Source of the DNA: Candidatus Krumholzibacteriia bacterium
GTDB lineage: Bacteria > Krumholzibacteriota > Krumholzibacteriia > Krumholzibacteriales > Krumholzibacteriaceae
NCBI GenBank assembly: GCA_963836185.1
Contig: CAWIIQ010000001.1
Span: 2,048,001-2,112,000 of the forward strand
Length of the DNA: 64,000 bases
Reading direction: 5' to 3'
A program made the translations under genes and the position numbers. Positions 4,722-25,200 of this stretch are shown here, in pieces (positions within the stretch are counted from its first letter, which is position 1; each line of letters begins with the position of its first letter). The notes beneath the pieces were generated by a model that was given only the letters and a program-made list of their open reading frames with translations, was not told where the DNA came from and made no database searches.

Positions 4722-4723
4722 AA

Positions 4724-5679: not shown

Positions 5680-5698
5680 GATAATAATCTCCTATACT

Positions 5699-6217: not shown

Positions 6218-6237
6218 TGCCGCTTGTCCCCCTTGCG

Positions 6238-6846: not shown

Positions 6847-6868
6847 ACCCTTCTCTCCGGGGCGATAC

Positions 6869-7609: not shown

Positions 7610-7650
7610 ACCATCTACCTCTAATCACTCAGGTCTCAAATGAAACGGAC

Positions 7651-8142: not shown

Positions 8143-9560
8143 ACTGTCCTTTCCATACGATTCCGTCCTTTATAACGGTCTTTCCTCCCAGGAGCGCTTC
8201 AGGGCTTTTGAGCGGACTCTCATCGAAGATAACGAAGTGAGCTCTCTTACCCGGTTCGATCGATCCGAACCTGCTCGAGATCTCCATCACCTTCGCGCTT
8301 CCGTACGTGGCGATCTGAAGAACGGATGCCATTGAAAGGCCCGCGTCATGCAGCAGAAGCATCTCGGAAAGAACGGCCATTCCCGGATCCACCGTGTCCG
8401 ACCCGATGGCCAGCTGGACACCTTCCCTGTGCATGAGCGCCACGTACGAAGCCATCACGGCGTAGCCGCGTCTCGCGCGCTCCAGGTCCTCGCCGGCCCA
8501 GGCCGACGTATCGTCGAAATCGCCGATCGGGGGCGAATCGATCACTGTCAACCCCAGAGGCTTCGCGATGGCATGAAGGGTCGGTGTCACAGTAGCGCGG
8601 CTTTTCGACAGCCTCCTGATAAGCGCTGTCATGATCTCGTTCTCTTCGCCGATCTCGTTGAACTGCTCGGCAGTCGCCATGAAGAAGGCGCCGCGAGTGT
8701 CGCCCTCCAGGATCTCATGGATAGAGCGCAGGATGATAGCCTGAGCGGCCTCTCCCCCGAGAACTTCGGGAGCGAGAGTGAAGGCGTGCTCAAAATGTCT
8801 CAACCCGAGATCCAGCGCAGCTCCGATCGTGAAGATACCGCGGTCGATGTGCGCGAAAGGGACCATGTCGAGCTCGAGCGCCTCTCCCAGCGCGGCCCGG
8901 AACTCGGGCTCCCGGAGCCGCCAGTAGAGCTTAATATACCTGAATCCGGCGTCGTGGTACTGCCGGACCCGCTGCGCAGCCTCCAGCGTGTCTCGCACGA
9001 CCGCGTGGCCCTGATACGGTGTGCGCCCCTCCTCGTGTGAGACAAGAGCTCCACCGCATGGAAAGAAGTCCGGAGCGGAGGGGTCAGGTTCCATCCAGGC
9101 CTTCATCAGCGGCAGATAGCTCTCGCTCGACCCGGCATCCCGCACGACCGTCACGCCGAAAGGCAGATAAGCCTCCGAGAATACGCGGCGGTATCCGTGC
9201 TATGGAGTCGGGCGCCATGTTCAGGTCCGCGATTCCGCCGCCGCCGGCGTTGAACGATGTGGCCAGAACATCGATGAGGTGACCGTGGGTATCTATAAGT
9301 CCAGGTGTGAGCAGCCGCCCTCCGGCATCGATCACACGGCGGGCCCGCGAGCCCTCAAGCGACTCCGATCTCTGCACGTCCCTGATGACCCCGTCGACGA
9401 CGGAGACCGCCACCCCTTCCATCACGACGCCTCTGCGGGCATCAAAAAGCGTTGCGTTGGTTATAAGCAGATCGACATCGGCCGATGCCGCGTCGCAGGC
9501 GGCAAAAAGCAGGATTGCGATCACCACTGATACTGACCTTCGCACCATACTTCTCTTCAT
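8120..9560 (-). CDS. secreted amidohydrolase family protein (one frameshift near 9190)
   Basis: N-part in ORF 9084..10307 (signal peptide, 'DAGGRLLTPGLIDTHGH'); C-part in ORF 8120..9154 ('GSD','GSIEPGKRAHFV'). Confidence 0.75.
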
Positions 9561-9574
9561 CGCGATTTTATCAA

Positions 9575-9604
9575 GGTCGGCTCTGGTGCAGCGTCTCGTC
9601 AGAC
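9575..9604 (-). repeat. truncated attC remnant (R''-L'' only)
   Basis: Minus strand GTCTGAC-GAGACGCTGCACC resembles the attC start RYYYAAC-nnnnnGCTGCAGC and contains the stop of the upstream gene; no matching second half. Confidence 0.4.
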
Positions 9605-10307
9605 CTTCTGCATATGCACGCAGGTGAGCTGATGTTTTTCTTCCGCGGTGACTTTCTTCGGGGGTATGATCTGGTTCGCCCACCGTCCAATGCTCCCCTT
9701 CCCAGAACTGCCAGTACTCCTGCTCTATAACTGCGCCCCCATTATCCCTGACCCATTTATCCAGCTCACTTCGCGAGAATGATTGCGTGATATACGGTGA
9801 ATCCTGGCCGTAGCTTGAACCGGGCAGTTCATATACGTTTCTCACATAGCTTCTTTCGCTGTACGGACATGTCAATATGATATGACCACCGGGATTCAAC
9901 AGGGAAAACATGTTCCGGACAGCGCTGTCCGGGTTTTGGATATGTTCAAGCACGCTTACACACGTGATCAGGTCAAACGTGTCCGACAGATGAGTCTTGA
10001 CGATGTCGTCGTCGATGATGTGATAGTGCCGATTAAACATTCCAGAGGGCCAGTAGTCGCTGACATTATCCGCTGCCGTAACAAGGCATCCGCAATTGCG
10101 CATCAGGTGCGGAAGTGCGGTCAGGCCGGTACCCACATCCAGGACCGTACGCGGATAGATCTCCCCAAGTTTCCTGAAGACGAAACTGAACTCGACCGGC
10201 CTCTCGTTGAATCGCGTGAAAGTCTGGGTCCTGAATTCTTTTTTGCATTTCCACCGCGGATACGTATTGAGCAGGTATTTAACAGCGTTTTCTGCTGACT
10301 TCAGCAT
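9599..10307 (-). CDS. class I SAM-dependent methyltransferase (frameshift near 9675)
   Basis: 'VLDVGTG...FDLITCVSVLEH...LNPGG'; after a 1-nt shift it ends ...HQLTCVHMQKV* at 9599. Confidence 0.75.
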
Positions 10308-10343
10308 CTGGACTCTCCTTATGTGGCCGCATTAGTTCATTCC

Positions 10344-10715
10344 CTATCGATATGTATACCCGAACGGAGTCAGAGAAAGCACAGCCAGTTTGATGTGCTG
10401 CTTCGCGAATGGTATCCCAATTATAGTTATCGCGCACAGGACCCCGAAGATCACGTGTGTAGCCGCGATGTATATCCCCCCACACAGTATCCAGAGGATG
10501 TTCATTATGATAGACAGAGCACCCGGAGAAGGCTTGTTGAGAGATATCTCTTTGCCAAAGGGGAGAAGTGAGAGAAACGCCAGTTTCATCACCTGTATAC
10601 CGAAGGGTATCCCGATGATCGTAAGGCAGAGCACCAGGCCGCCGATGAGATACTCGAGGAACAGGAAGATCCCTCCTCCAAGCAAGATCCACAGTATGTT
10701 TCCGATCAGGCTCAT
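10344..10715 (-). CDS. yccF: YccF domain inner-membrane protein
   Basis: Two repeats of 'NILWIL.GG...TIIGIPF...PFG'. Confidence 0.85.
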   Translation of the reverse strand: MSLIGNILWILLGGGIFLFLEYLIGGLVLCLTIIGIPFGIQVMKLAFLSLLPFGKEISLNKPSPGALSIIMNILWILCGGIYIAATHVIFGVLCAITIIGIPFAKQHIKLAVLSLTPFGYTYR

Positions 10716-10742
10716 GATCCCTTCCTCCTCTAAACAGTGAAC

Positions 10743-11156
10743 TTAATACAGCTTCCTGATCCTTGCCGAACAGATCGGAGCAAGAGATGTTGTAATCAGC
10801 ACAAGCGCCCAGACTCTCCCACTGATCAGATCGTAATCCGAGAACAGCCTCTCCCACGAATGCCCGAACAGGTAGTGTCCCGCAAGGAACTCGAATGAGA
10901 CTGTCATCAGCAACCATAATATCCCGATTAGTATCGCTTTGCCATTACTATCAGGCGCTATCCACCTGATCAGCAGCCACGCCACAAGAAAAATGAGAGC
11001 GCACAGGGTTACAGTGCTGATTACATGGCCGGCGTATTCACCACTGACAGGAGCAATGAACGTGTTTCTGAGTATCCCGTTCAGAGTCGCTACGACCGAC
11101 AGAATCAGCCAGACGATTATTGCTCGAAAATACAATTCAAAGTCCTCTTCAGACAA
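10743..11156 (-). CDS. hypothetical 4-TM membrane protein
   Basis: Hydrophobic ORF co-oriented with the array, 'IGILWLLMTVSFEFLAGHY'. Confidence 0.65.
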   Translation of the reverse strand: MSEEDFELYFRAIIVWLILSVVATLNGILRNTFIAPVSGEYAGHVISTVTLCALIFLVAWLLIRWIAPDSNGKAILIGILWLLMTVSFEFLAGHYLFGHSWERLFSDYDLISGRVWALVLITTSLAPICSARIRKLY

Positions 11157-11196
11157 GGCACGTCGTCTATCAGGTAACTATGCTCGATGAGGGGCA

Positions 11197-11265
11197 GGCT
11201 GACATATGAACAGATCACAAGCAGACAACATAGTGCCGTTGTGATAAGCAGACGCACAGTTGTCC
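11197..11265 (-). repeat. possible highly degenerate attC
   Basis: Minus strand GGACAAC...ATCACAA/TTGTGAT inner inverted repeat...GTCAGCC, starting 7 nt after the stop of the upstream ORF. Confidence 0.3.
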
Positions 11266-11272
11266 TCTCTTT

Positions 11273-11661
11273 CTAGTCATCATCAAGTCCAAGCCACTTC
11301 CTGGCTTCTTCGATATTTCTGAAGACTTCGACTGTCAATGGTGAGTCCCGCAGTTCTGCGATCGTCTGATACATCCTCGCGAATCCGTACAGCAGGTCCG
11401 TACCAGCCACTATCGCCGATCTCATCCCGGCCAGTTTCTCGCTATTGGCAGTGTCTATCTGGATATTGCGCTCAAGAGAACTTGACGAGCCCTGGACCTC
11501 CTCGATGCCGGACAGATCGACCAGTTCCCGCACTCCCGGCTTGATCCGGGAATCAGCCGCGACAGCCTCCCCCTGATCCCTCAGGTCCTTGTCGGTCACT
11601 ACACCGAAGAGGCGCGTATACATGACGTTCTTCTCTTCTCATACGTATACTCTACAGACAT
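11273..11661 (-). CDS. hypothetical STAS/SEC14-like small protein (probable frameshift near 11635)
   Basis: 'ELVDLS...AIVAGTDLLYGFARMY...VFRNIEEARKWLG'; RBS plus ATG at 11661 is out of frame by one base. Confidence 0.6.
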
Positions 11662-11685
11662 CTCTCACCTCTAAGATAGATGTTT

Positions 11686-11898
11686 TCATTCTGTTATATC
11701 TCCAATCAAATTCTCGACCAGGTGCTCAAAGGTGGTCGGATCGACACCGATTCCACCCCGAAACGGGTCACTCAGTGCCAGAATACTGTAAGTCATCTCA
11801 ATCGCATGACCAAACACAAAAATGATTATACCTTTCTCTGTCATATTGTAGTGAATCTCCCCGAACAGCTCATCAACACTAGTACATGGGGTTTTCAT
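11686..11898 (-). CDS. small hypothetical protein or gene remnant
   Basis: 70-aa ORF filling the gap, no recognisable motif. Confidence 0.3.
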   Translation of the reverse strand: MKTPCTSVDELFGEIHYNMTEKGIIIFVFGHAIEMTYSILALSDPFRGGIGVDPTTFEHLVENLIGDITE

Positions 11899-12265
11899 TC
11901 ACTCTTGTCTTTGGAATCTGCTGCATCGAGTCCCAATGCTCGACGATTTTGCCGTGTTCATCAAACCGGAAGAAATCCATCGTCACATACTCATCGCCTC
12001 CGGGCCATACCTGGTGAGTGTGAAGCGCAACCAGATCGCCTTCTGCAACCGATCGCACAAATTCAATCGACTTTTCAGGATACTCTGATGCCATTCTCTC
12101 GAAGTATTCGATGAACGGCTCTGGCCCGTTGCCGACCAGCGGATTGTGCTGGATGTATTCTGCGCCCACGTACTTCTCGACAGCTTCTCGAGGAGACCCT
12201 TCATAGGCGGTCTTATAGAACGCGATGGCATTTCTCTTGTTTGCTTCAATATCCTGAGTCACCAT
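11879..12265 (-). CDS. SnoaL/NTF2-like protein
   Basis: 'YIQHNP...AEGDLV..H...DFFRFDEHGKIVEHWD'. Confidence 0.85.
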   Translation of the reverse strand: MVTQDIEANKRNAIAFYKTAYEGSPREAVEKYVGAEYIQHNPLVGNGPEPFIEYFERMASEYPEKSIEFVRSVAEGDLVALHTHQVWPGGDEYVTMDFFRFDEHGKIVEHWDSMQQIPKTRVNENPMY

Positions 12266-12729
12266 ACCCTCCAATGCATGATTGCCGAGAATAGTAATTT
12301 CGCACACCGGGGGTCAACAGGAGAAGGATGCATCAAGAATCCGTCGACAGCTGTGACATATTGGATTGGGCTTCTAAGACCAATCAGGAATCCTTGAACG
12401 GTCAACCAGGCTGCGAGCGTCACACCGAGCACCAGCGTTCCTGTCCATGCCCAATGATATGTTTTCGACGGGAATACAGACGCTGCCCATTTCCATCGGG
12501 GACAGACCAATAGCCCATAAATCAGTGCCAAAGTCGCTGTTCCCATAATAACCAGTAAGAATAGACCCGGCAGATGGTAATCAGATACTGGCAATTGGGG
12601 CAGTAACTCATTCAGCTGAAGCGATCTTCCCGAAGGATCGACCAGCATGGCAATGCCGCCATACAATCCACCCACACAGAGCAGAAGAAGCAGAAAAAGG
12701 ATTACCCAGATGGTCAAGGGGCGGCGCAT
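12259..12729 (-). CDS. hypothetical membrane protein (C-terminus possibly frameshifted)
   Basis: 'GGLYGGIAMLVDPSG...PGLFLLVIMG', hydrophobic. Confidence 0.65.
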   Translation of the reverse strand: MRRPLTIWVILFLLLLLCVGGLYGGIAMLVDPSGRSLQLNELLPQLPVSDYHLPGLFLLVIMGTATLALIYGLLVCPRWKWAASVFPSKTYHWAWTGTLVLGVTLAAWLTVQGFLIGLRSPIQYVTAVDGFLMHPSPVDPRCAKLLFSAIMHWRVW

Positions 12730-12824
12730 GCATGTATCCCCTGTTATATTTGACTTTTCTTTTTATTTCCGCCAGTATAGTCAGTCACAGGTAATCGAAT
12801 AATTTGTAATTATATAAGTAACAT

Positions 12825-13425
12825 ATGCCATTTCCATACTACAACAATCTAAGCGCGACCAAGAAAGAGTATTTACAGGAAAAGCGATGCCATAGATAGC
12901 ATTCCTGTCAAGGATCCGGACCGCATACACCCTGTGGCCATTAAACTCAAGAAGTCCCTTGAGGAGAATAAGCGCCGCGATGTAGCTAAGCATGCCTCTG
13001 AACTCTGCCGCCTGGTATGCAAGGGCCTCGACACAGAAGCACTCAGCGTAAAAATAAGCTCGAAGCGCCCATCAAGCGATACTGAAGAACTGCATGGCTT
13101 ATATGAGTGGGCAGAGGGGGAAACTCCTGTGCTTACTGTCTGGATGAAGACCGCCGTCAAGGGACAGGTGGTAGCGTTCAAATCATTCATCAGGACGGTA
13201 CTTCACGAACTCTGTCATCATTTGGACTACACTCACTTCGATCTTGATGACTCTTTCCACACAGAAGGCTTTTTTAAAAGAGAATCTTCTCTCTACAAAC
13301 AAATAGTCCCCATGGAGCTTCAAAAAAGTAAGCCAGATAAAAAGAAAGCCCCCCAAAAGAAGGCTGAAAGGCAAAAAAGTAAAGAGCCGGAACAAATGGA
13401 TCTTTTTAACGCTTGCTTCGCCTGA
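12825..13425 (+). CDS. SprT-like zinc metalloprotease (HExxH), inverted relative to the array; 1-nt shift near 12866
   Basis: 'LHGLY...RTVLHELCHHLDY...FHTEGF'; upstream ATG 12825 gives MPFPYYNNLS...IYRKSD after a frameshift. Confidence 0.7.
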
Positions 13426-13458
13426 AAAGTCGTTTCGTGCAGACCAGGCGCCCGCGGG

Positions 13459-14028
13459 TTATTGCTCCCGCGCTGCTTTCCGAAACAACCAGGCCGACAA
13501 AAGCCACAGCGCGGCGAAGAACCCGGTCGATACCAGGATATCCAGCGGCCAGGTCGGCCCCGTGGAGCCGAATCCGGCGATCAGCGCGATCACGGCGACC
13601 AACACCTGAGCGAGCGCCGTCGCGAACAACGCGCGTGCCATTCCATGGGGCCGGAAGCGCGCGATGATGGCACCGATGATTCCGACGGCGAGCACCCCGC
13701 CATACATCAAGTTGGCGTCGTCGTGCTCAGTCCCGATGATGCCAACGGCACCGTTCACCCAGACGAGGATAAATGCTGCCGCGAGCGCAACGCCGACGGC
13801 GGATCGGTACGCGGTATTGCCTGTCTTCCTCGCTGCCAGCTCATAGGTGACACCAGCGCCGACCAGGAGGGCGCCGAGGACAGCGAAATCGGTCACATCC
13901 CAGACGACTTGATCGGTGACCTGCATCGCGAACAGGGGCAGCAGCATTATGAGCGCTGCGGCGGCCCAGGCTGCTATCCTCCATCGGTTCCGGCGCCGTC
14001 TGCCACCGTTTTCCGTGTTTCCTGTCAT
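13459..14028 (-). CDS. hypothetical multi-TM membrane protein
   Basis: 'PLFAMQVTDQVVWD...WVNGAVGIIG...WLFRKAA'. Confidence 0.75.
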   Translation of the reverse strand: MTGNTENGGRRRRNRWRIAAWAAAALIMLLPLFAMQVTDQVVWDVTDFAVLGALLVGAGVTYELAARKTGNTAYRSAVGVALAAAFILVWVNGAVGIIGTEHDDANLMYGGVLAVGIIGAIIARFRPHGMARALFATALAQVLVAVIALIAGFGSTGPTWPLDILVSTGFFAALWLLSAWLFRKAAREQ

Positions 14029-14562
14029 CGCCTTGCCTCCGGTGATGCGTCTTGGCAGCCAGTCGCCATAAATGCCTCGTGAAACACCATGATGCCTTGT
14101 GGAATATTTTCACCTAACGGCAAGGCAAGGAATACTTCCTGTGGGATTCCTTCGTAAACCAACTCAGGATAATTTTTAAAAACCGAACTGTTTATAATAA
14201 TTCGGATCACCGACAAGAGCGCAACCCTGGGCGCCTAACTTTTTAAGCTGAGACAACCCTTCGTTAACAAGTGATTTCCCGATGCCTTGCTTTTGATACT
14301 CCGGCAAAACTGAAACCGGACCGAGGCCATACCAGCCTGTAGCGCCGTCAGAAATTGTTACAGGTGAAAAAGCAATATGCCCGATGACTTGCCCATCATT
14401 TTCTGCCACAAGGGAGATAGTCAAAACACCAGCTGCACGCAACGCATTTATTATGAAATGTTTAGTCTGGTTGCTGACTTGGACCGTCTCGAAGGCAGCT
14501 ATTGTTACCTGGGTTATTGCCTCAATACCTGCGATCGTTTCTTTTCTAATAATCATTTCCAT
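14025..14562 (-). CDS. YhbS-like GNAT N-acetyltransferase (frameshift at about 14176)
   Basis: 'GHIAFSPV...LGPVSVLPEYQKQGIG...LVGDPNYYKQFGF' continues in the next frame 'KNYPELVYEGIP...FHEAF'; break lies in a T5/A5 homopolymer. Confidence 0.8.
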
Positions 14563-14632
14563 ACTCCGGTTCCATTTCATAATTCTACCAGGATCCATAA
14601 TCGTCGTGGCCGGAGCTCTGAGTCATCTTGAA

Positions 14633-15031
14633 TCATGAATTGTTCAGATCCTCTGGCAAGCCCAGCCATGCCAGGGCGGCGTCCATGGCACGGAATACCA
14701 CAAAATTCCAATGCACAGAATCGGCAAGCACTTCATACATTCTGGCCAGACTGAAGGAGAGATCCTTTGTAGCCACAACGGCTACTTTTGTGCTTACTGT
14801 AATGCCGGTGAGTTTCTCTTCCACTGATTCAGCAAAACGAAGAAGTGCTTCAGGGCTCCTGGAGCTGCTGTGTGTTTCCCGTAAGTCAACCAACATGTTC
14901 ATCGGTGGTTTGAATGTATCGCTTTCAAAGAATGCTTTGTAGAAGGCAAGAAACTCGTCGTCCGGCACTCGCCCGGTATGCACAAAAACAACCAGTTTGT
15001 ATTCCGGTCTGACATGAGATTCAATGGTCAT
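14633..15031 (-). CDS. hypothetical STAS/SEC14-like small protein
   Basis: 'LVDLRE...VAVVATKDLSFSLARMY...VFRAMDAALAWLG'; same family as 11273-11661. Confidence 0.65.
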   Translation of the reverse strand: MTIESHVRPEYKLVVFVHTGRVPDDEFLAFYKAFFESDTFKPPMNMLVDLRETHSSSRSPEALLRFAESVEEKLTGITVSTKVAVVATKDLSFSLARMYEVLADSVHWNFVVFRAMDAALAWLGLPEDLNNS

Positions 15032-15068
15032 AAGTCCTCCTTATATGATCCTGACTTCGTAGAGTATT

Positions 15069-15363
15069 TCATTTCCTCGCCACAAGAATTACTTCACCGC
15101 AATATTTCCTTAGTCCTGGAAATAAGGCCAGCAAGATATTATCTGTTTTCTTTACAAGATACAGAAACCAACGAATGGGTGGAAATGTTAATCCGTTTCT
15201 AAAAATACGCTTACTCATAAAGAAAAGAGACATCAATTCAATGCTGTACATCAATCTTATAAGTCCTGGAGTCAAACGGCAGGCTGTCTTTTTATTCTAT
15301 GTCGTGCTCTTCACTTTCAATGCGTTCCCATTCCTCAGGAGATATATGGCTATTTTTTGTCAT
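15069..15363 (-). pseudogene. decayed gene remnant (possibly an internally deleted methyltransferase)
   Basis: ATG 15363 hits a stop after about 23 codons; C-terminal '...DNILLALFPGLRKYCGEVILVARK' resembles methyltransferase tails; AT-rich. Confidence 0.4.
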
Positions 15364-15396
15364 CTTGTGATTCCTTTCTTGATCTTTTTACATTCG

Positions 15397-15493
15397 ATCC
15401 ATTGTTCAGTTTCAGATGCGAAGACGATTGCCCGGCCCGTGCCCCGCAGTCGCCGTGACAGACAAGACAGGCAGCTGAAGGCAGAAGCTGGAT
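15397..15493 (-). repeat. degenerate attC (both core sites mutated)
   Basis: Internal GCCCCGCAGTCGCCGTGACAGACAAGAC nearly identical to attC 23283-23380; ends ATCCAGC / AATGGAT instead of RYYYAAC / GTTRRRY; 97 bp. Confidence 0.75.
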
Positions 15494-15497
15494 GACT

Positions 15498-16347
15498 TCA
15501 TTTCCTCTCAACAGATCTTGCTACAACGGCGAACTCATCAGCATCAGGATCATAAACCTTACCAGCAACATCACCCCAGATTTCAATTACCTGTAGCCCA
15601 CAACTATCGAATTCGCTCTTGACCTCTGATGGTTCAAAGCACTGAAGCCAATTGAAGACCTGACGCGTACGTTCCCTTTCGACTATGGTGTACTTGTCCA
15701 GTAATACTCGCTCTTTATCATATTTGAACTTATTGAGAAATCCATAATATTCATCCGGAGACCAGAATCCGTTGAGAAGATTCAACTCGTAGGTTGCACT
15801 CTCTTTGCGTCGGTCGAACATGTGTTCGAATAGACATCGAGAAGAACAGCTCCCCCATCAGCCAGTAACATACGGTATTTATTCAACATTAAAGAACGCT
15901 GATCACGATTGAGCGCGCAAAAGTCACACATGATCATTATGATCAGATCAAAGCGAGCAATCTGTGTCATAGCTTAGATAGTCCGCCTCGACGTATTCGA
16001 TATCCAGATTTTCATCTGCAGCCTTATCGCGGGCATATCGAAGCGAGTTGGCCGAAAAGTCAATTCCCGTGACTTTTGCACCGGCCTGAGCGAGGCGCTG
16101 TGCATATAACCCAGGCCCACATCCGAAATCTGCCACTCTGGATTCAGCAGTAAGCCCGAAATGCGACACGATCCACTCCACAGAACGTTCAATAAAAACA
16201 GGATTCCTCGATGCTGCCTCTATATTCTCATTCAGATGATACGAGAGCATCTGTTCCGATGTGTATGGATCGGTCCATAACTCTTGTGTTGTGTACTCCG
16301 AAAACGGTTCTAGGCCGTCTATTTACTTCATGTAAAAATTCGTACAA
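15498..16347 (-). pseudogene. class I SAM methyltransferase split into several frames
   Basis: 'VADFGCGPGLY...GIDFS' (15948-16250), 'IMCDFCAL' (15782-15970), C-terminus (15498-15821); frameshifts may be sequencing errors. Confidence 0.65.
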
Positions 16348-16366
16348 TTGGATCTCCCTTAATCGC

Positions 16367-16456
16367 AGCTAAAGTTCAGCTTAAGCAGCAGCGAGAAGCG
16401 CCGACAACAAGCTATGATCTAAAAACCTTTCTGTCTGTGTCTCCAACAAGGGGCAG
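16367..16456 (-). repeat. strongly degenerate attC
   Basis: Plus-strand AGCTAAA-GTTCAGCTTAAGCAGC resembles the family end GCCTAAC-GTGAGCTTCAGCTGC; lies between two cassette genes. Confidence 0.45.
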
Positions 16457-16459
16457 CCG

Positions 16460-17948
16460 TCACTTGATCTTCTTGGCCGGAATCTCCATGCCTTGGTAAA
16501 AGATGACCAGGCCGGTCACGGTGCCATCAGAATCTCGGCTGAAGGTGAAGTAATACGGCTTTCCGTCAATGAAGAATTCCGTCTCGGAGACGGCCATCAC
16601 GTCGTCCCAGTAGTTCCCGTCCCCGGACCCGACCAGACGTCCATCCTCAACCTTCAGGAAGATAGAATCCCCTGGCTGCACTTCATACTGCCCGGTGACG
16701 GCATCGAAGATCGAGGGATCGATCTTGACGGTCTTCCGCTCCGGCTCGGGTGTCGGTGGCGGAACCGAAGGGTCGAACGGCTGATACCCCAGCCATGTGA
16801 AGGGCGAACTCTGGTCACCGATCACTCGCTCGACGATCAGGTGAGCGATGCTCTCGAAGTTGGAACTATTGCTCAGGAGGACAACCCCGATCTTCTTGTC
16901 CAGGTAGGTGACCGTGTAGTTCTCCCAGCCGACATCGTGACCCGTGTGGAAGAACGCCCGCCCGAACTCGGTTTCGAACAGGCCCCACCCAAGTCCCCAG
17001 GCGAGATGAATGGTCTTGTTATCCTCCGTTGTTTCGCCCGCCAACGGGCCGAACATTCTTTTGGACAGCACCGGGACCTGAGGCGCGAACATCTGATCGA
17101 TCGAATCCTGCTCGAGACCCTCGCCACTCAGAACAGCAAGGAGTAGCCTCGCAAAGTCCGAGGCGGTGGTCAGCAAGGATCCGGCTGCGCTCGGTTTCGC
17201 GCCCCGGCTCTTCTTGATCCGTTTCTGTCGTTCCGTGTGCCCGTCGGCGTGGTTCGTTTCGAAAGCCGGCTCCCAGACATAGCTTGTGTGCGACATGTTC
17301 AACGGCATAAACAGACTCTCCCGGGCCAGTACATCCAGGGGCTTGCCCGTTATGTTCTCGACAACCATCTGCAGAAAGTGGAAACCCTTCGCCGCTGTAG
17401 CTGAACCGTTCGCCCGGTGGAAAGACGAACGTGAGTTCGCCTCCCTCCTACAGCAGGCGGAAATTGGGCCAGCCCGTGGTATGCGTCAACACACGGCGGG
17501 CCGTAATCTCCCGCATCCGAGGGTCATCCCTCAGATCCTCCCACTTCGGATACTCGCCGATGGGCCTGTCAAGGTAATCAACAAGGGGGCGATCCAACTC
17601 CAGCAATCCGTTCTCGACCAACTGCATGACCAGACAGGCAAAAGTCGGCTTGCTGAACGAGAGCCCGGGGAACACCGTCTCCCGATCCGGGACAAGTCCC
17701 GACGTACGGCTCTTCAGGCCCCACTCGTGCTCGTAGACTACATCGCCGTCGTTGATGATCGCCATCTGAAGGCCCATCACGCCGGCGTTATCCATCACCG
17801 CCGCGACATACTCTTCTATTTCACCTACGGAGACGTAGCTGTCGTCGATCCGCCTGATCTGCTGCCTGCCTGCATCGACCGTGCGCGAGTCGCATGCCCA
17901 TAACATCGCAGTGACAAGCAGCATGGGAATAAGGAGCATGGCTCTCAT
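16460..17948 (-). CDS. serine hydrolase (beta-lactamase/AmpC-like) lipoprotein with C-terminal DUF3471-like domain; frameshifts at 17370-17450
   Basis: Lipobox LWAC, SxxK (SFSK), LTHTTG, YSG, 'FFHTG'. Confidence 0.75.
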
Positions 17949-17993
17949 GAATTCTTTCTCCGATCCGAAACGAGCGGGATTACACTTTCGACA

Positions 17994-18093
17994 GCACATC
18001 GTTCAGCTTCAGCTGCGGTCGCCAGGCTGGCGCGGTGGGTGCCCCGCAGCCGCCGTGACAGCCAAGACCGCCAGTTGCATGCGAGGGTTAGGC
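17994..18093 (-). repeat. attC (R' core mutated GTT->GAT)
   Basis: Minus: GCCTAAC-CCTCGCATGCAACTG...CAGCTGAAGCTGAAC-GATGTGC; 100 bp family member. Confidence 0.8.
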
Positions 18094-18097
18094 CTAC

Positions 18098-18529
18098 TTA
18101 AACCCTCTTGGGACGGAGAAACGCTACAACACCAAACGTTATTCCAACAAGAATATCCACTGCCGCACAGATAAATAGAATTGTCGATATACTTTGCATC
18201 GACGGGCCGTGAGATCGGTATGCTGAGGCCGCGTCGACAAGCGCTAATCCCAACATCAGAACAACGAATCCGACTACAACAAGACCAGATGTCGAGGCCC
18301 AACTTCGTTCCTTTGACACAATAACTATAACCGCACAAGCAGTTGCTGCAACTAGGGTTAAACTAAAATTCACCCAGAATGCCGGCACGGCTCTATTTGG
18401 ATTGGCACCAGGAGAGTTGTCAGACTTGATCCCTGGGATCACACTCAGCGCCAATAATATGGCAACCAAGACGAGAAGAATCGTACAGCCCAGCAGCATT
18501 CGTCTGCTCGACTTGAGGTTCATCTTCAT
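18098..18529 (-). CDS. hypothetical 4-TM membrane protein (cassette)
   Basis: GGAGG RBS, hydrophobic ORF bounded by attCs. Confidence 0.7.
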   Translation of the reverse strand: MKMNLKSSRRMLLGCTILLVLVAILLALSVIPGIKSDNSPGANPNRAVPAFWVNFSLTLVAATACAVIVIVSKERSWASTSGLVVVGFVVLMLGLALVDAASAYRSHGPSMQSISTILFICAAVDILVGITFGVVAFLRPKRV

Positions 18530-18564
18530 AATTTCCTCCAAATCATGATCTCATTCCCAACTGG

Positions 18565-18660
18565 GCCAAACGTCTGTTTCAGCTGCGACAAGGCTGGCGA
18601 GCCGGTTGCCCTGCAAGCGGCATGATAGTCGCAGTCGTCAGCTGCATGCGATAGTTAGGT
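18565..18660 (-). repeat. attC
   Basis: Minus: ACCTAAC-TATCGCATGCAGCTG...CAGCTGAAACAGAC-GTTTGGC; 96 bp. Confidence 0.85.
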
Positions 18661-18678
18661 TGTGTGTCTCCATCTCTT

Positions 18679-19272
18679 TTACCTGCGATCGTGTATACGT
18701 GGCACGAACCGCGGAACCTTTTTTTTGTACTCAATATATCTCGTGCCGAAACGAGCCGTAAGTTCACGTTCCTCAAGCACTGCTATGACGAAGATCATCA
18801 CCACGTAGACGCCCCACAGAAGGTAGAGTATCAGGTAGTTGGTCAGAAGTGCCATCGCCGCAATCGCTAAAGTCATCGCGACGAACCTTGGATGCCTCAT
18901 GTGCGAGTACACTCCATCCTCCACGAGGTTTCCAGGTTCATCCGGGGAGATCTCTGACAGTCCGAATGCCATCGTCTTAGGAACCCGGCGGTAGACCAGA
19001 ATGTTGAGGTACGAAGAGCCCGCTATAAGAATACACGACACACAAGCCAACGGCCAGCGGAAGCCGTATCGAACGTGTAAGAGTGGATTGCGTACCAAAT
19101 ACATGCCCAGCATGACCAAGATAGTAGATGCGGCAACAATGAGCATGCTCCCGGTTGATCCCAGGCGCCGCCAGAATGAGACTAAAGAATGCAGCAGCAC
19201 CCACGCTATCAGAGTTGCTGGAACAGTGATGAGCGTAAGGAGCGCAAGGTAGTAGAGCACACTATCCTGCAT
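18679..19272 (-). CDS. isoprenylcysteine carboxyl methyltransferase/PEMT family membrane protein (cassette)
   Basis: 'LVEDGVYSHMRHP...EERELTARFG..Y..YKKKVPRFVP'. Confidence 0.85.
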   Translation of the reverse strand: MQDSVLYYLALLTLITVPATLIAWVLLHSLVSFWRRLGSTGSMLIVAASTILVMLGMYLVRNPLLHVRYGFRWPLACVSCILIAGSSYLNILVYRRVPKTMAFGLSEISPDEPGNLVEDGVYSHMRHPRFVAMTLAIAAMALLTNYLILYLLWGVYVVMIFVIAVLEERELTARFGTRYIEYKKKVPRFVPRIHDRR

Positions 19273-19314
19273 CGGCTTTTATACCTCTCAAATGCCAGTT
19301 CGCCATGTGTCGCA

Positions 19315-19411
19315 ACCTAACGTTGGCTCCACCTGCAAAGACGATTGGCGCGGACAGTGCGCAAGCAGGGTACGTGACAAACGGCTTTGTGGGTGCAAGC
19401 TCTTGTCAGGT
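19315..19411 (-). repeat. attC (R'' = ACCTGAC, contains TGA stop)
   Basis: Minus: ACCTGAC-AAGAGCTTGCACC...GCAGGTGGAGCCAAC-GTTAGGT; 97 bp. Confidence 0.8.
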
Positions 19412-20047
19412 CGTTTCCTTCGCTCCTTCGAGATAGACGGCGTCCATCGAAAAATCTTCCACCGGCTCGACAACACATCGGATGATCGCGAACCCGGCTT
19501 CTTGTGCCCATGTCGCCATTTCGTTGCTGCAGTATCTGAGAGCAACAATGTCCGACTCGTCTCCGTAGTCGATAGCCCCGCTGCCCTCCCACGTCGCGAC
19601 AACAAGCTGCCCACCGGGTCCCAGGATCCGATACCACTCACGGAAGGCCAACTCAACACCCTCGGAATCCAGGTGGTGCAGTGCAAAGAAATTCAGGACC
19701 GCGCTGCTTGATCCGAGACCAACTGCGGACAGGTCGCGCATGTCACCGACGACAAGCTGCGCATTAGGCCCGAGCTTCTCCCCAGCAATTGATACCATGC
19801 GCGGCGACAGATCTATTCCCAAGAGCGGGCGATTACTATCGTAGCGCTCGTGGTACATGGAGAGCATATGCCCCGAGCCACAGGCGGTATCGACAACTGC
19901 GCCCGGTATATTCGCAATGCGATCACGCAGGCGCCCCAAAATGTCGGCATAGACTGGAAGGCCTATTTCCGCGTCCATCATCTGCGCGTACGAGTCCGCC
20001 GTTTCCTCATATATTTTGCGTACTTCATTTGTGGGCGATGGCTGCAT
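19406..20047 (-). CDS. class I SAM-dependent methyltransferase (cassette)
   Basis: 'VVDTACGSG...GIDLSPRM...GDMRDL...ILGPGG'. Confidence 0.85.
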   Translation of the reverse strand: MQPSPTNEVRKIYEETADSYAQMMDAEIGLPVYADILGRLRDRIANIPGAVVDTACGSGHMLSMYHERYDSNRPLLGIDLSPRMVSIAGEKLGPNAQLVVGDMRDLSAVGLGSSSAVLNFFALHHLDSEGVELAFREWYRILGPGGQLVVATWEGSGAIDYGDESDIVALRYCSNEMATWAQEAGFAIIRCVVEPVEDFSMDAVYLEGAKETT

Positions 20048-20060
20048 GATTTTCCAGTCG

Positions 20061-20156
20061 ACCTAACGTCAGCTTCAGCTGCGACAAGGCTGGCGGGCCG
20101 GTTGCTCCGCAAGCGGCATGACAGCCGTAGTCGCCAGCTGCAAGCAGTGGTTAAGT
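20061..20156 (-). repeat. attC
   Basis: Minus: ACTTAAC-CACTGCTTGCAGCTG...CAGCTGAAGCTGAC-GTTAGGT; 96 bp. Confidence 0.9.
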
Positions 20157-20162
20157 GGTGCC

Positions 20163-20381
20163 CTAATTCTTGGACTGGCGCACGCACCACATGATCGCAA
20201 GCACTGCGCCTAGAACGCATCCGGCCCCGAACACCATGCCTAAAAAGACGGCGTGAGGTAAAGTAAGCCGCCAGAACAATACGTTAGTTTCCACAGGCTG
20301 AAAGTTCTGCAAGACGATTATGGCACCAAGTACACCTAATACGATCGCAACGATCATCTTGGCGCGTGATGGTCCTGTCAT
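20163..20381 (-). CDS. LapA-family (DUF1049) small membrane protein (cassette)
   Basis: 'IIVLQNFQPV...FW..TLP' two-TM pattern; GAGGGG RBS. Confidence 0.7.
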   Translation of the reverse strand: MTGPSRAKMIVAIVLGVLGAIIVLQNFQPVETNVLFWRLTLPHAVFLGMVFGAGCVLGAVLAIMWCVRQSKN

Positions 20382-20416
20382 ATTCCCCTCCTATTTGAGG
20401 CCCATAGTAAATATCC

Positions 20417-20479
20417 ACTTAACGCTCCCCCTCAGCGGCGCGCCGCAAGCGGCGCGTCCGCTGCAGCGGGTTGTTAGGC
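20417..20479 (-). repeat. short 63-bp attC of a different family
   Basis: Minus: GCCTAAC-AACCCGCTGCAGCGG...CCGCTGAGGGGGAGC-GTTAAGT with central CGCGCCGC-AA-GCGGCGCG hairpin. Confidence 0.9.
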
Positions 20480-20523
20480 CGCACCGCCACTGCGGGAACT
20501 TGGCAGCGTGATTTCGCCATTCC

Positions 20524-20925
20524 TCAGTTCTCTTGCATCGCTCCAAATCCCGTATCGTCCGCCTCGTGCATGTCGGGGACGTTGATGGCGTGCTCGCCCA
20601 GCCATTGGTTCACCTCGACTCGCTGGAAGCGTCCCTTGGCCCCGACAAGGAACCGGATCAGCTGACCGGGTTTGGCTGGCAGTACCCGGCCTTCCTTCAC
20701 CACGATGGTGCCGTTGACGATCACAAAGGGGATGCCGACCGGCGGCAGCCCGTTCTCGCCCTCCTTGTAGGTCGCGCGGGCAGCGACGGTGGACGGGTCA
20801 AACAGCGTCAGATCGGCAACCTCCCCGACCTGCACGCGTCCGCGCTCCTTCATCGCATCCAGCCCGGTGTCCCCCAGGTGCTTGGCGGTCCAGTAGCTCA
20901 ACTGCGCCAGGGTGAACCCTTGCCT
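20524..20925 (-). pseudogene. C-terminal fragment of N-acyl-D-amino-acid deacylase-like amidohydrolase
   Basis: 'RGRVQVGEVADLTLFDP...GIPFVIVNG.IVV..G' with no N-terminal domain or RBS. Confidence 0.7.
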
Positions 20926-20968
20926 TCTTGCATAAGCGTGGCCATCATCAGGGCAAAAACCATGAAAC

Positions 20969-22408
20969 CTATTCCTCACGACGGAAAATCCGGTGCTGCA
21001 TGCTAAGGAACGCCGGCTTTCCAGACTTGTCACGCAGCAACTGACCAACCGTTCCCCGGAAGGGACCATCTGTCATGATAACCATGTCTTTACCCGCGCT
21101 ACTCATCGAAATCGGGGGAGGGTTCTCATAAACTTTCATTCCTCCTAATGGTTTGTATAAACGCTCAGCCATGAGCTGGTCGTTGTCAAAATAGAGTTTG
21201 TAGTCTTCATTATCCCCTAACCAAAGACCTTCGAAAGGTTCAAGGGAACTACGATCTGCAGTGATTGCAACTAAGGGTATTTTCTCAATATCTAAATACT
21301 TTTTGAGAGCCAGTGCGATTACCGCATCGTACACCTCAATACCACGGTCGCTGTTCGTAAGAACAACAATCCCAAATTTCTTATCCGGTGCAAACAGCAT
21401 CTTGGCGGTAGCCCCTCCCGACCGACCGGCATGAAAAACGGTTCGCACACCGCCGATATCCTCAACGAACCACGCAACGCCGGTGTGTTCACTCAGCTCG
21501 CCTTCGACCAAGGGACTGTGCGCCAGGTCCAGCAACTTTGGAGACAACAGTTGACTGCCGTCCTTGTCCTTACCGTCAAACTGAAATTGCATCCACTTCA
21601 TCATATCACTGACATTACTGAGTATGGCTCCGGCCGGATAGACGCTGCGCGGAAAAGGCGCAAAGCTGACCTGAGGTTCGGACGTCCCGTCATATACTCC
21701 GGCATGGCCAACAGCAAAGCGGTCTGCCATTAGTTCCGCCATGAAGAAGGAGGTGTGCGTCATGCCCAGGGGCAGAAACAACTCGTCCTTAACTTTTTGT
21801 TCATAAGATTTTGCACGGCTTACGCCTTGAATGAGACGTCCTGCAATGATGTAGTTGTTATTGTTGTAGGCCCAGACCTCGCCATAAGGTGTGCGTTGTG
21901 GTAGGAATCGAAAAGACCGCACGGCCTTCTCCAAGGCATCTTCCCCCGAACTGGGATCCTCAAAGTAGTCGCCTTGCCAGCCAGTCCGGTGCTGGAAAAG
22001 GTCGATGACCTTCGCCTTTTCTGAAGCCTCTCTATCCAGGACCGAAAACTCCGGGAGATACTTCCGAACCGGGGCTTCGAGGTCGAGCTCTCCGCGTTCT
22101 GCCATTTTAAGAACCACCGTGGCCGTAAAGGGCTTTGTCGTGGAACCGATATAAAACACGGTGTTTTCAGTGACAGCCTGAGGATCGTCAAGATTGGTAA
22201 TGCCGATGCCGGCCATTTGGACCTTGCCATCGTGAATGATCCCAATGGCTATACCTGGGACTTTGATCTCGTCCATGAGCCGCTGAGCTTCGCTCTTGAT
22301 TTCCTCAAACCTCGTGTCCAGGTTTTCCTGTGCAAATGCCTGTTGGACTGTCATCAATGACGAGACTATTACAGTAAAAAACAGTGCCATGTTTCGTTTC
22401 ATTGTCAT
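20969..22408 (-). CDS. secreted serine hydrolase, beta-lactamase/AmpC-like (cassette)
   Basis: AAGGAG RBS, signal peptide (AFA), STTK, YNN, HAG motifs. Confidence 0.85.
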   Translation of the reverse strand: MTMKRNMALFFTVIVSSLMTVQQAFAQENLDTRFEEIKSEAQRLMDEIKVPGIAIGIIHDGKVQMAGIGITNLDDPQAVTENTVFYIGSTTKPFTATVVLKMAERGELDLEAPVRKYLPEFSVLDREASEKAKVIDLFQHRTGWQGDYFEDPSSGEDALEKAVRSFRFLPQRTPYGEVWAYNNNNYIIAGRLIQGVSRAKSYEQKVKDELFLPLGMTHTSFFMAELMADRFAVGHAGVYDGTSEPQVSFAPFPRSVYPAGAILSNVSDMMKWMQFQFDGKDKDGSQLLSPKLLDLAHSPLVEGELSEHTGVAWFVEDIGGVRTVFHAGRSGGATAKMLFAPDKKFGIVVLTNSDRGIEVYDAVIALALKKYLDIEKIPLVAITADRSSLEPFEGLWLGDNEDYKLYFDNDQLMAERLYKPLGGMKVYENPPPISMSSAGKDMVIMTDGPFRGTVGQLLRDKSGKPAFLSMQHRIFRREE

Positions 22409-22458
22409 CTTGGGTTCTCCTTCTTTGATGTTGCTCTGGTTTGGGTCTTTCTCTTTTA

Positions 22459-22555
22459 GCCTAACGTGAGCTTCAGCTGCGGGCGCCGGCTGGCGCGGCG
22501 GGTGCTCAGCAGCCGCCGTGACGACCAAGACCGTCAGCTGCAAGCAGAGTTAGGA
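22459..22555 (-). repeat. attC
   Basis: Minus: TCCTAAC (contains TAA stop)-TCTGCTTGCAGCTG...CAGCTGAAGCTCAC-GTTAGGC; 97 bp. Confidence 0.9.
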
Positions 22556-23278
22556 TGTTGCCTTTTCTATTCTCACACCCTTTATCAGAAGCCACAGACA
22601 AAGTGACAGTTCTCCGACAAGTGGTGCAATATATATTGGTGCTATGCCCCCTGTATAGTCTGGCCAGAGAAATAGCGTAAAGCTACCAATCACATACCCT
22701 ATTCCCGCAGCATACATGAGAATGCCTAATATCTTTGGGAAATACTCAGAATTGGACAGCAAATAGCCAAGAAACAGACAATGAAGACCAAAGAACACTA
22801 GGCCAAGATCATACCCATGTTTGTGAATATTCAGGAACATCAAAGCTATTGAATTTAGCTGTGATGAGTCAAGAGAACTGAGATAGTCAGTGCCTTTGAG
22901 AACAATCAAAGCCGCAAAGTAATTCAGCAGGTTCACACCATAGATCGCTGTTCCAGTCAGCCTGAATCCCGCTGAAACGAGGGAACCTGTTTTGCTCACA
23001 GACCTAAGCAGAATATACAGCATTATGGCTACAACCACATCACAGAGGAATATTACCAGGTCACAGGCGAAACCAACTCGAAACAAACTTTCAGAAGCTA
23101 GAATGTTGTTTGCAGTCGCAGCAGCATCACCATGCACGATCAGGCTTCCCCGGACGAATACTTCGCTGAAGAGGCCAAAACCGATGATTATCAAGTATAA
23201 GACACCTGTGATCCGGGCATATGTCACAGTGGACATCTCAGATAGACGTGTCATCATATCCCCCTCCTTCCAATCCAT
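22550..23278 (-). CDS. DUF4386 family membrane protein (cassette)
   Basis: 'ARITGVLYL...GDAAATANNILASE..FR...GLVFFG...GELSLCLWLLIKG'. Confidence 0.8.
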   Translation of the reverse strand: MDWKEGDMMTRLSEMSTVTYARITGVLYLIIIGFGLFSEVFVRGSLIVHGDAAATANNILASESLFRVGFACDLVIFLCDVVVAIMLYILLRSVSKTGSLVSAGFRLTGTAIYGVNLLNYFAALIVLKGTDYLSSLDSSQLNSIALMFLNIHKHGYDLGLVFFGLHCLFLGYLLSNSEYFPKILGILMYAAGIGYVIGSFTLFLWPDYTGGIAPIYIAPLVGELSLCLWLLIKGVRIEKATS

Positions 23279-23282
23279 ATCA

Positions 23283-23380
23283 TCCTAACGTGAGCTTCAG
23301 CTGCGGTCGCCGGCTGGCGCGGCGGGTGCCCCGCAGTCGCTGTGACAGACAAGACCGTCAGCTGCAAGCGTGGGTTAGAC
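23283..23380 (-). repeat. attC of first cassette
   Basis: Minus: GTCTAAC-CCACGCTTGCAGCTG...CAGCTGAAGCTCAC-GTTAGGA; 98 bp. Confidence 0.9.
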
Positions 23381-23412
23381 CGTTCTTTTATCTCATACTT
23401 CTGTCAACTAGG

Positions 23413-23817
23413 TTAAAACTTCTGAACCCTAAAATTGAGCGTTCCACTGTATTGACTAAGCACAAGGCGAATCTGCCAGGTACCGGAAGATCCGGTTAAC
23501 GTTGTATCATTCAAGCTTGGTACAAGGATCTTGTCGTAAACAGTCACGTCTCCTGCATCTTTGATTATCAGTCGCGCTGTTCCGTACGTAGTTGAAGTCG
23601 AGTGATTGACTGTGGCCTGTGTTCCAGTGTTGTTCCAATCATAGGGTAGAGTAGCAGTCCGGTTTATGACTCCGGTTGCTTGCAATTGAAAATTGTCAGT
23701 CACATTTGTCACTTCAGGTTGAAATGGAGCCAGAGGATCATCGGAACATTGGTAAAATGTAGGAACACCGATAACGACGAGCAGGAATATTACTGTTTTA
23801 AAAGTGATGCGTTTCAT
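23413..23817 (-). CDS. hypothetical exported/lipoprotein (first cassette)
   Basis: Signal-like N-terminus with Cys (YQCSDD), beta-rich, AT-rich. Confidence 0.7.
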   Translation of the reverse strand: MKRITFKTVIFLLVVIGVPTFYQCSDDPLAPFQPEVTNVTDNFQLQATGVINRTATLPYDWNNTGTQATVNHSTSTTYGTARLIIKDAGDVTVYDKILVPSLNDTTLTGSSGTWQIRLVLSQYSGTLNFRVQKF

Positions 23818-23845
23818 TGGATTCCTTTCTATTCTAGCTCTAGCG

Positions 23846-23870
23846 GTCTAACGTTATGTCTGTTGAACTA
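23846..23870 (-). other. attI recombination site (crossover G|TTAGAC at 23852)
   Basis: Minus GTTAGAC is complementary to R'' GTCTAAC of the first attC but is not preceded by an attC arm; lies next to intI. Confidence 0.8.
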
Positions 23871-23925
23871 GGGTATTGGATATGACTGCGTGGGTGACTA
23901 TGTATCCAATTTCTAGTTCTGGTTT

Positions 23926-23960
23926 ATTATCTCATCAGTTTCCCAAAAATCAACAGCTTA
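23926..23960 (-). promoter_or_regulatory. candidate Pc promoter overlapped by an IHF consensus
   Basis: Minus TTGATT-N16-(TGa)GATAAT; plus AATCAACAGCTTA at 23948-23960 matches WATCAANNNNTTR exactly. Confidence 0.4.
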
Positions 23961-24030
23961 TCTGAAATACCTGGTGTGGCGGGTCAGGGATAGGCTGCAA
24001 TATCTGTTTCGTAAATACTTTTTCTTATTG

Positions 24031-25063
24031 CTACATATCATCCAGAGGGCTCCTAACTCCCCTCCCTCCCCGGTTCAGGACGTGCGTGTAGATCATCGTC
24101 GCAGTGACATCCCGGTGCCCCAGGAGTTCCTGGATAGTCCTTATATCGTAGCCGTTCTCGAGAAGACGCGTCGCGAAGGAATGCCTGAAGGTATGGCAGG
24201 TCGCGTGCTTCGCAATTCCGGCGGCACGGACAGCTTCTTTTACCGCTCTCTGGAGGACCGTCTCATGCAGGTGGTGACGCCTGTACTCACCCGTCTCACC
24301 ATCCCTGTAGAACCTCGTAGCCGGGAACACCCACTGCCATCCCCATTCCCGTGATGCTCCGGGGTATTTTCGGCTCAACGCATCGGGCAGGGCGACCGAA
24401 CCGCGTCCCCTCTTGATATCTTTCCCGTGCTGTTCCCGGACCCGGGAGAGATGTTCCCTGAGACGATCCTTCAGGGTGAGCGGGAGAAGTGTCATCCTGT
24501 CCTTGTTCCCCTTCCCGCTCCTGACTGTGATCTCGCCTCGCTCGAAATCAAGGTCCTTTATCCTCAGCCCGGCGCATTCCGGCAGTCTCATTCCCGAACC
24601 ATAGAGCAGCGACGCCATAAGTCGCGGGGTCCCCTGCATGCGGCTCAGGACTTCCCGCGCTTCGCTATGAGTCAGGACGACCGGGAGCTTCTGAGGCCTC
24701 TTCGCCCTAACGATGCCGTCGAGCCATCCGAGATCGATTTTCAGCACATCCTTGTAGAGAAACAGTATCGCGCTTAGAGCCTGGTTCTGGGTGGAAGCGC
24801 TCACCTTTCTCTCCGTCGCAAGGTGCGAGAGGAACCGGGTCACATCTTCCTCTCCAAGTTCCAGGGATGTCTTTCCCGTTGAAGATGATGAATCGCTTGA
24901 TCCATCTCCTGTACGAATCCTCCGTCCTGCGGCTGTAATGTCTGCCTTGATGGCATACTGACCTGGTCGAGGAGTCTGATCAGTTCCAGGAGTTTGATCT
25001 GGGCGATCTGAGTGGATCCGGGGATCTTTTCTCGCGGACATACGACAGGCCTGTATCCGGCAT
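24031..25063 (-). CDS. intI: integron integrase (N-terminal region carries several 1-nt deletions)
   Basis: Tyrosine recombinase motifs GMRL..C, GKGNKDR, HTFRHS, LGH, TMIYTH plus the integron-specific insertion '[10 protein letters not shown]...W.WVFP...RRHHL'; N-terminus [22 protein letters not shown] recoverable across frames. Confidence 0.95.
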
Positions 25064-25103
25064 CTTCTCTCTCCTGGTTGTAGTGGAGTCCCCCGACAGG
25101 AAG

Positions 25104-25132
25104 ATTTTATTCTTTGTATGGTCGCACGTCAA
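25104..25132 (-). promoter_or_regulatory. sigma70-type intI promoter
   Basis: TTGACG-N17-TAAAAT upstream of AGGAGA RBS and ATG 25063. Confidence 0.65.
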
Positions 25133-25165: not shown

Positions 25166-25200
25166 AAAAAGGCCGGATGAAATATACCATCCGGCCTTTT
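25166..25200. terminator. intrinsic (bidirectional-looking) terminator after tatA
   Basis: AAAAA-GGCCGGATG-loop-CATCCGGCC-TTTT. Confidence 0.85.

Follow-up and report, generated by a model that had tools for sequence, protein, structure and literature searches.

Reverse integrons have been described in several publications (PMC3607928, PMC3575428, PMC4909258, PMC6557892), whose available sections know the type from Treponema denticola and also list Chlorobium phaeobacteroides and Blastopirellula marina. For the attI site of Treponema, putative DR1 and DR2 elements (PMC7691350) and a Pc promoter have already been described. In the accessible parts of two further sources, the reverse group is called paraphyletic (PMC4889954) or a sub-clade (PMC8352920). 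The attI1 site of class 1 integrons is given as a sequence of 65 bp with the elements L, R, DR1 and DR2, and the DRs favour recombination between attI and attC (PMC8946536, in part); portions of PMC3146285 and PMC9024848 provide integron background. A literature search for integrons in Krumholzibacteriota gave only an unrelated study.

The locus described here lies in a 64 kb stretch of DNA (the window, to which all positions refer). Taken as a whole, our working proposal that it is a chromosomal reverse integron of Krumholzibacteriota, with intI, attI and the cassettes on one strand, is very probably correct. The co-oriented layout of intI, attI and attC is a direct observation: the minus strand carries intI, then the attI crossover 179 nt further on, then eight attC-like sites (Table 1). 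The reverse layout itself is already known, and the system belongs to the known reverse integrons. The analysis suggests that the new element is an extended attI with motifs at fixed spacing, which is testable.

Table 1. Features of the integron locus; promoters, motifs and protein-binding sites are predictions.
Feature	Position	Strand	Remarks
Terminator-like hairpin between tatA and the intI promoter	25167..25200		T-runs on both sides; similar in G001, G003, G004
Predicted PintI, TTGACG-17-TAAAAT	25104..25132	-	10/12 consensus
intI, integron integrase gene	24031..25063	-	five single-base frame losses in first ~200 nt; catalytic 3' 276 codons intact
Motif A, GCAG-n2-TATC, predicted accessory protein-binding site	23989..23998	-	147 nt before crossover (about -146)
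IHF-consensus site, exact	23948..23960	+	about -108; overlaps -35 box of weak Pc candidate
Weak Pc candidate, TTGATT-16-TG-GATAAT	23926..23953	-	9/12; equalled by 17% of spacer shuffles
Motif C (TTGGATAC), L-box-like	23902..23909	-	-58
Motif D, GCAG-n3-TATC	23879..23889	-	-38; imperfect inverted pair with C
attI core	23846..23864	-	L box 23864-23858, 5-nt spacer, R box 23852-23846, crossover G|TT 23852/23851
Cassette 1, 134-aa protein, no Pfam family	23289..23851	-	attC 23283-23380
Cassette 2, DUF4386 protein	22465..23288	-	attC 22459-22555
Cassette 3, serine-hydrolase (PF00144) gene and amidohydrolase-like fragment	20423..22464	-	attC 20417-20479
Cassette 4, LapA-domain protein	20067..20422	-	attC 20061-20156
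Cassette 5, SAM methyltransferase	19321..20066	-	attC 19315-19411
Cassette 6, PEMT/ICMT-like methyltransferase	18571..19320	-	attC 18565-18660
Cassette 7, small protein of no family	18000..18570	-	attC 17994-18093, R' box damaged
Eroded distal array	3565..17999	-	degenerate attC 15397-15493; mostly co-oriented small genes up to ppiD-like gene

The attC sites were identified with a covariance model built from 15 sites (six from the window and nine from relatives), which was adopted because a model-free attC finder missed degenerate sites and produced false matches in GC-rich DNA. The model detects eight sites between 15397 and 23380, six of which were part of its training alignment, and the minus strand scores best for all eight, in agreement with the initial annotation, which had all cassettes reading leftward. 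It had also named attC sites on the tatA side of intI as evidence against the layout, and the model finds none there in the 64 kb window. The cassettes are bounded by R''-L''-L'-R' attC hairpins with the extrahelical bases on the bottom strand. These bottom strands fold with two extrahelical bases, and their quality declines away from intI: six of the eight reach z-scores of -2.2 to -5.4, and the two distal, degenerate ones only -1.7 and -0.2. The covariation of the attC stems was not equalled in any of 500 shuffles. The core-site match is 7/7 for cassettes 1 to 4, 6/7 for cassette 5, 7/7 for cassette 6 and 6/7 for cassette 7; the eighth site matches at 3/7. Most attC sites of the window (e.g., the one at 23283-23380) have a C as the first extrahelical base on the bottom strand; a figure legend of PMC5371416 describes the conserved first extrahelical base as G.

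Cassette 1 also sits behind an attC in other metagenomes, and the look-alikes of its protein are all unnamed. On the model for class C beta-lactamases, the hydrolase of cassette 3 reaches 106 bits, below the cut-off of 415. PADLOC gave nothing beyond a generic methyltransferase match for 18 array proteins, Rfam had no match within the window, and no transposase was found among 51 scanned ORFs. A second array was not found in the genome when 150 of 1340 candidates were scored, two weak matches having E-values of 0.05-0.08. Within the eroded part, a plus-strand ORF (12934-13425, in 12873-13425) runs against the minus-strand array. Since the attC sites of kin genomes point at the same ppiD-like gene, the array is taken to be about 20 kb long, with seven intact cassettes followed by an eroded part. 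It occupies a fixed chromosomal locus, the tatA side being kept in G001, G003 and G004 and the ppiD side in G004 and G006.

The assembly is error-prone and an inverted class 1 integron is on record (PMC4889954, in its available part), so that the co-orientation might be ascribed to an assembly inversion or to a recent local rearrangement of a canonical integron; this is, however, vanishingly improbable. A single short-read contig of a close relative (X4, 1349 nt) covers the DNA between the intI promoter region and the attI crossover, at which it ends, and contigs overlapping it extend into tatA. The order tatA-intI-attI is common to G001, G003 and G004. In the same-genus genomes G004 and G006, attC sites adjoin and point at the ppiD-like gene that terminates the run of small genes in the window, with the same attC direction, and the pattern holds phylum-wide. 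Independent short-read contigs and same-genus genomes thus retain both array ends; the assembly inversion was rejected on these grounds and the layout is real.

The annotated span of intI, leftward from 25063 to 24031, is correct with regard to the strand, the start and the identity as an integrase; it is, however, not one continuous frame in this assembly, and the frameshifts in its 5' part had been missed. The ATG at 25063 coincides with the start of an intact relative of 358 aa (P0122/P0001), and the 276 codons at the 3' end (24034-24861, minus strand) reach 418 bits on the profile TIGR02249 (cut-off 265). VchIntIA is the best solved-structure match of the integrase (E 8e-76), with an alignment that runs through the IntI-specific insertion, and the identity to IntI1 is 57% over the catalytic part. 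The integrases P0001-P0027 carry a variable N-terminal extension of 20-45 aa with a short conserved hydrophobic-VRE motif before the usual integrase start. In comparison with the X4 contig, single bases are lost near 24863, 24872, 24942 and 24954, and a fifth frame change lies near 25026; the intact protein P0122 (358 aa) is on a contig of the same length as the X4 contig. Run X10 shows the same four extra bases as X4, but is not independent of it because both come from the same study.

The frameshifts in the 5' part of intI are likely to be consensus errors of the assembly, and likelier so than the result of decay. Compared with a same-genus genome, this assembly has frameshifts in 39 of 181 conserved genes (0.30 per kb; none in seven control genes), and a second method found 42 of 207 affected, with a uvrB-like gene and tatA among the frameshifted genes. 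As about one fifth of the conserved genes are affected, pseudogene calls from this genome are unreliable. Split genes in the window are found at 25145-25456 (tatA), 26691-27450, 38339-40400 (uvrB-like), 16460-17999 and 15498-16250. That the integrase is a true pseudogene on the same platform, and the array frozen and eroding, is less likely. It would fit the clustering of the five lesions within about 200 nt, which are deletions only, four of them inside about 95 nt, unlike the error background of the assembly, which consists mostly of insertions (42 vs. 11) with at most two events per 170 nt. A proline follows the catalytic R-L in the integrase of the window, where relatives have S or L, and attC quality drops beyond cassette 6. 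Kin genomes also carry a broken intI (split in G006, with stops in G036, G051, G058 and G111), and integrase inactivation is stated to be common, at 43-46% (PMC3108266, in the part available). On the other hand, the catalytic part of 828 nt is free of stops and frameshifts and shares 93% identity with the intact relative. Lesions from random decay would be scattered over the gene, and all four located losses are shortened runs of identical bases, in an assembly with this frequency of frameshifts. Consensus errors remain the preferred reading.

The initial annotation had assigned the integrase to an inverted clade. In a quick tree of 100 rows, from which seven short rows were dropped, the window falls into a clade of 30 rows (SH-aLRT 96) with 16 reverse and no canonical loci, and the lone Treponema sp. 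row lies outside of it. In a careful tree of 50 rows, the bootstrap of which had not converged, the Treponema row joins the clade of the window (95/91), which then comprises 25 rows with 21 reverse and no canonical loci. A single clade of all reverse rows was not rejected (p-AU 0.139). Treponema was represented by one Treponema sp. sequence (L083) and not by T. denticola; its locus has a co-oriented attC 3' of intI. The membership in a purely co-oriented clade thus holds in both trees, whereas the link to Treponema is found in one and missing in the other.

The integrases of the same-family genomes G020 and G024 are identical to database proteins labelled Krumholzibacteria or Krumholzibacteriota, and by way of these kin a member of this phylum is the most likely host of the integron. 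In the phylum, 92 of 208 genomes contain an IntI match. Among 26 intI loci searched in kin, all 11 with an attC match at E<0.05 have the attC sites 3' of intI and co-oriented. A further 18 loci of the phylum yielded three with co-oriented 3' attC sites and two with degenerate attC-like matches on the 5' side. In these two, L250 (3225-3325) and L252 (471-544), the attC-like remnants lie upstream of intI on the opposite strand, and an attI-like end is also present on the 3' side. Two genomes have two intI matches each, mostly partial (G027, L036 and L037; G026, L014 and L024), and in G027 co-oriented attC matches lie downstream of each. A contig break lies no more than 1.6 kb from intI on its 3' side in 34 of 46 cases and on its 5' side in 4 of 39, a count that used 85 of 94 rows after removal of the own genome and of eight truncated or partial matches. 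Beyond the phylum, 30 of 80 GTDB loci from many phyla could be classified, 12 as reverse and 18 as canonical. Of 80 metagenome relatives, all 37 that were classifiable are reverse, although this set includes near-duplicates and many members with short 5' flanks. The cultured bacterium Gemmatirosa kalamazoonensis (L259), which belongs to the same clade, has a reverse array with eight attC matches. The layout therefore looks common across Krumholzibacteriota; the description as a minority clade is right in naming a known type, but with 12 of 30 GTDB loci and 37 of 37 metagenome relatives the reverse form is not rare outside Proteobacteria.

The attI site had been placed about 180 bp beyond the 3' end of intI, and it is found there: GTTAGAC (23852-23846, minus strand) lies 179 nt past the stop codon and is the exact complement of the R'' box in the attC of cassette 1 (7/7). 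In an alignment of ten related spacers, conservation stops at G|TT, and the contigs of relatives diverge at the crossover. Across 34 spacers, the core has an A at -8 in 32 and a C at -14 in 26. The crossover expected in L008, L012 and L024 reads G|ATGGCGCGG and is followed by a common GC-rich palindromic non-coding element, possibly a mobile element targeting attI. In the loci L016, L017, L233, L237, L240 and L251, the DNA directly 3' of intI holds genes that resemble toxin-antitoxin or small regulator genes and have a promoter of their own, and by eye no attI-like spacer is present in the first 350 nt.

Further motifs lie between the core and the end of intI. Motif A occurs at -144 to -148 in eight of ten family spacers, at -155 and thus one helical turn farther in G003, and in degenerate form in G001. 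Motif C is found at -58 to -60 in eight and motif D at -38/-39 in seven of the ten, and as the three motifs were defined on related sequences, kinship inflates their conservation. Measured from the crossover, the positions of the motifs are fixed; measured from the stop codon, the distance to A ranges from about 30 to 185 nt. An exact match to the IHF consensus lies at -107 to -109 in five of the ten family spacers, which are five of the seven closest; the other five and most of the wider phylum lack it. When the bases of the seven closest spacers were shuffled 2000 times, at most three had an IHF match, although these kin are not independent. The positions specified by the consensus differ in 4 of 63 cells vs. 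8 of 28 at free positions. The held-out metagenome loci L200, L201 and L212, which represent one platform sequence with about 70% IntI identity, also contain motif A followed 37 nt later by an exact IHF site, and the distance from A to D is 107 nt in L219. In L200 and L201, the spacers are identical up to about 170 nt past the stop codon and then continue into two different versions of C, D and the core, which suggests an exchange or duplication of the proximal attI.

Motif C resembles the L box of attI (xxGATAC in G001, G003 and G004), and C and D sit close to where attI1 has DR2 and DR1; for these reasons, both are read as putative accessory IntI sites. Among the tetramers 3' of intI, GATA/TATC shows the strongest enrichment in 24 reverse loci and is outside the top seven in 17 canonical loci. 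These patterns in the DNA somewhat favour an attI that extends over about 150 bp and includes A, C and D as accessory IntI sites. That an IHF-type protein bends the DNA at -108 and brings A towards the core is a more tentative suggestion; three genes of the IHF/HU family are present in the genome, their proteins scoring below all curated cut-offs. C and D could instead form a DNA or RNA hairpin beside attI, which is improbable: they fold in the window with z-scores of -3.3 and -4.7 as DNA, but only 77% of the cells pair across ten relatives and the covariation equals that of shuffled columns (225 of 500 as high), and the hairpin was rejected on this ground.

The intI promoter TTGACG-N17-TAAAAT noted in the initial annotation could be located, and six relatives (G001, G004, G013, G020, G016 and G025) retain its predicted -35 and -10 boxes, while the spacer between them has diverged. 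No terminator was found in 33 of 34 spacers between intI and attI, which makes read-through possible. It is reasonably probable, judged from these sequence features, that PintI transcripts run through attI into cassette 1, where they may be topped up by the weak Pc. On the sense strand, 9 of 34 spacers reach a promoter match of 9/12 compared with 3.4 expected, and on the antisense strand two; as 17% of shuffles equal the candidate of the window, a separate Pc is weakly supported. The spacer motifs might accordingly be viewed as a transcription-control module for Pc outside the recombination site, with a regulator on A, C and D and IHF over the -35 box, a reading that we regard as somewhat doubtful. 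It would account for the overlap of the IHF-consensus site with TTGATT and for the modest enrichment of sigma-70-like matches, and a Pc cloned from reverse integrons of the Treponema type shows activity in E. coli (PMC6557892, in the section available). However, the motifs keep a fixed distance to the crossover, whereas the position of the best promoter match varies between -49 and -168, the likeness of C to the L box and the DR-like positions of C and D point to the recombination site, and a -35 box leaves the conserved TAA beyond TTGATT unexplained. A sigma-54 reading of the spacer was dropped, as by eye no GG-n10-GC is present at C. Accessory IntI sites are still the favoured interpretation of A, C and D.

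Both lexA and recA are present in the genome. No E. coli-type LexA box was detected at PintI or in the spacer, and the repeat that is conserved upstream of lexA in this lineage is absent from both when up to two mismatches are allowed. This direct repeat, TTCGG-n6-TTCGG, lies over the lexA promoter (G000:C1:830540-830565 and L122-L144), is kept in most kin and is a candidate LexA box of the phylum, although it is absent before recA. SOS control of the integrase is not supported, because the repeat is missing from PintI and the spacer; it is missing before recA too. Judged by GC skew and dnaA, intI and the cassettes lie on the inferred leading strand, and leading-strand orientation is reported to limit excision in sedentary integrons (PMC5371416, in part).

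In the proposed mechanism, provided that living cells have an intact integrase, it would place cassettes into the G|TT site 179 nt past its own stop codon. Following known integron chemistry, IntI would recombine the folded bottom strand of attC with the double-stranded attI, and new cassettes would thus enter beside the platform while old ones erode towards ppiD. At its most speculative, and rather unlikely as a complete picture, attI in the reverse integrons of this clade would be an attP-like site of about 150 bp with phased accessory IntI sites and an IHF bend, in which the complex lies in the path of the transcript and results in an SOS-independent self-control of integrase and cassette expression.

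In Krumholzibacteriota the reverse form appears to be the normal one, and it also appears common in Acidobacteriota, Gemmatimonadota and neighbours; its label as a minority would therefore reflect sampling bias. PCR designs that presume a divergent intI would miss reverse integrons, and G. kalamazoonensis offers a cultured carrier of such an array from the same clade. For integrons other than those of classes 1-3, attI is poorly defined, and the fixed-phase site of 150 bp with an IHF consensus provides exact bases for mutation. IHF sites have reportedly been found in the promoter region of class 1 integrons, which would lower the novelty of the IHF site. No architectural host protein for attI recombination and nothing on point regarding IHF and attI was found in the literature searched, and the term IHF does not occur in a review on host factors (PMC8946536).

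Like the reverse integrons of the Treponema type, the locus has an intI that is transcribed towards attI and co-oriented with the cassettes, a spacer of about 200 nt that holds attI, and a PintI without an E. coli-type LexA box (PMC3607928, PMC7691350 and PMC6557892, in their available sections). It differs from them by its phylum, by an integrase identity of only about 49% to L083 and by accessory motifs, among which are one copy in inverted orientation, a distal one at -146 and an IHF-consensus site; no description of these three elements in a reverse attI was found, although earlier accounts may describe accessory sites. Archaeal integrons belong to another domain and are likened here by description only; they also have a putative attI that directly follows intI and shows the canonical insertion point (PMC9668308, in part). 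With sedentary integrons such as that of Vibrio cholerae (VchIntIA, PDB 2A3V), the system shares one chromosomal copy at a fixed locus, a homogeneous attC family and attC sites whose bottom strands belong to the inferred leading-strand template, an orientation given for 25 of 30 such integrons in the accessible part of PMC5371416. The V. cholerae integron, in contrast, has a divergent intI, far larger arrays and an attIA without direct repeats. Class 1 integrons differ by a divergent intI, by a LexA-controlled PintI that interferes with Pc and by an attI1 that is less than half as long and has two direct accessory sites. The core of attI1, however, has the same arrangement of an L box, a 5-nt spacer and an R box with G|TT, and accessory repeats lie upstream of it at similar distances.
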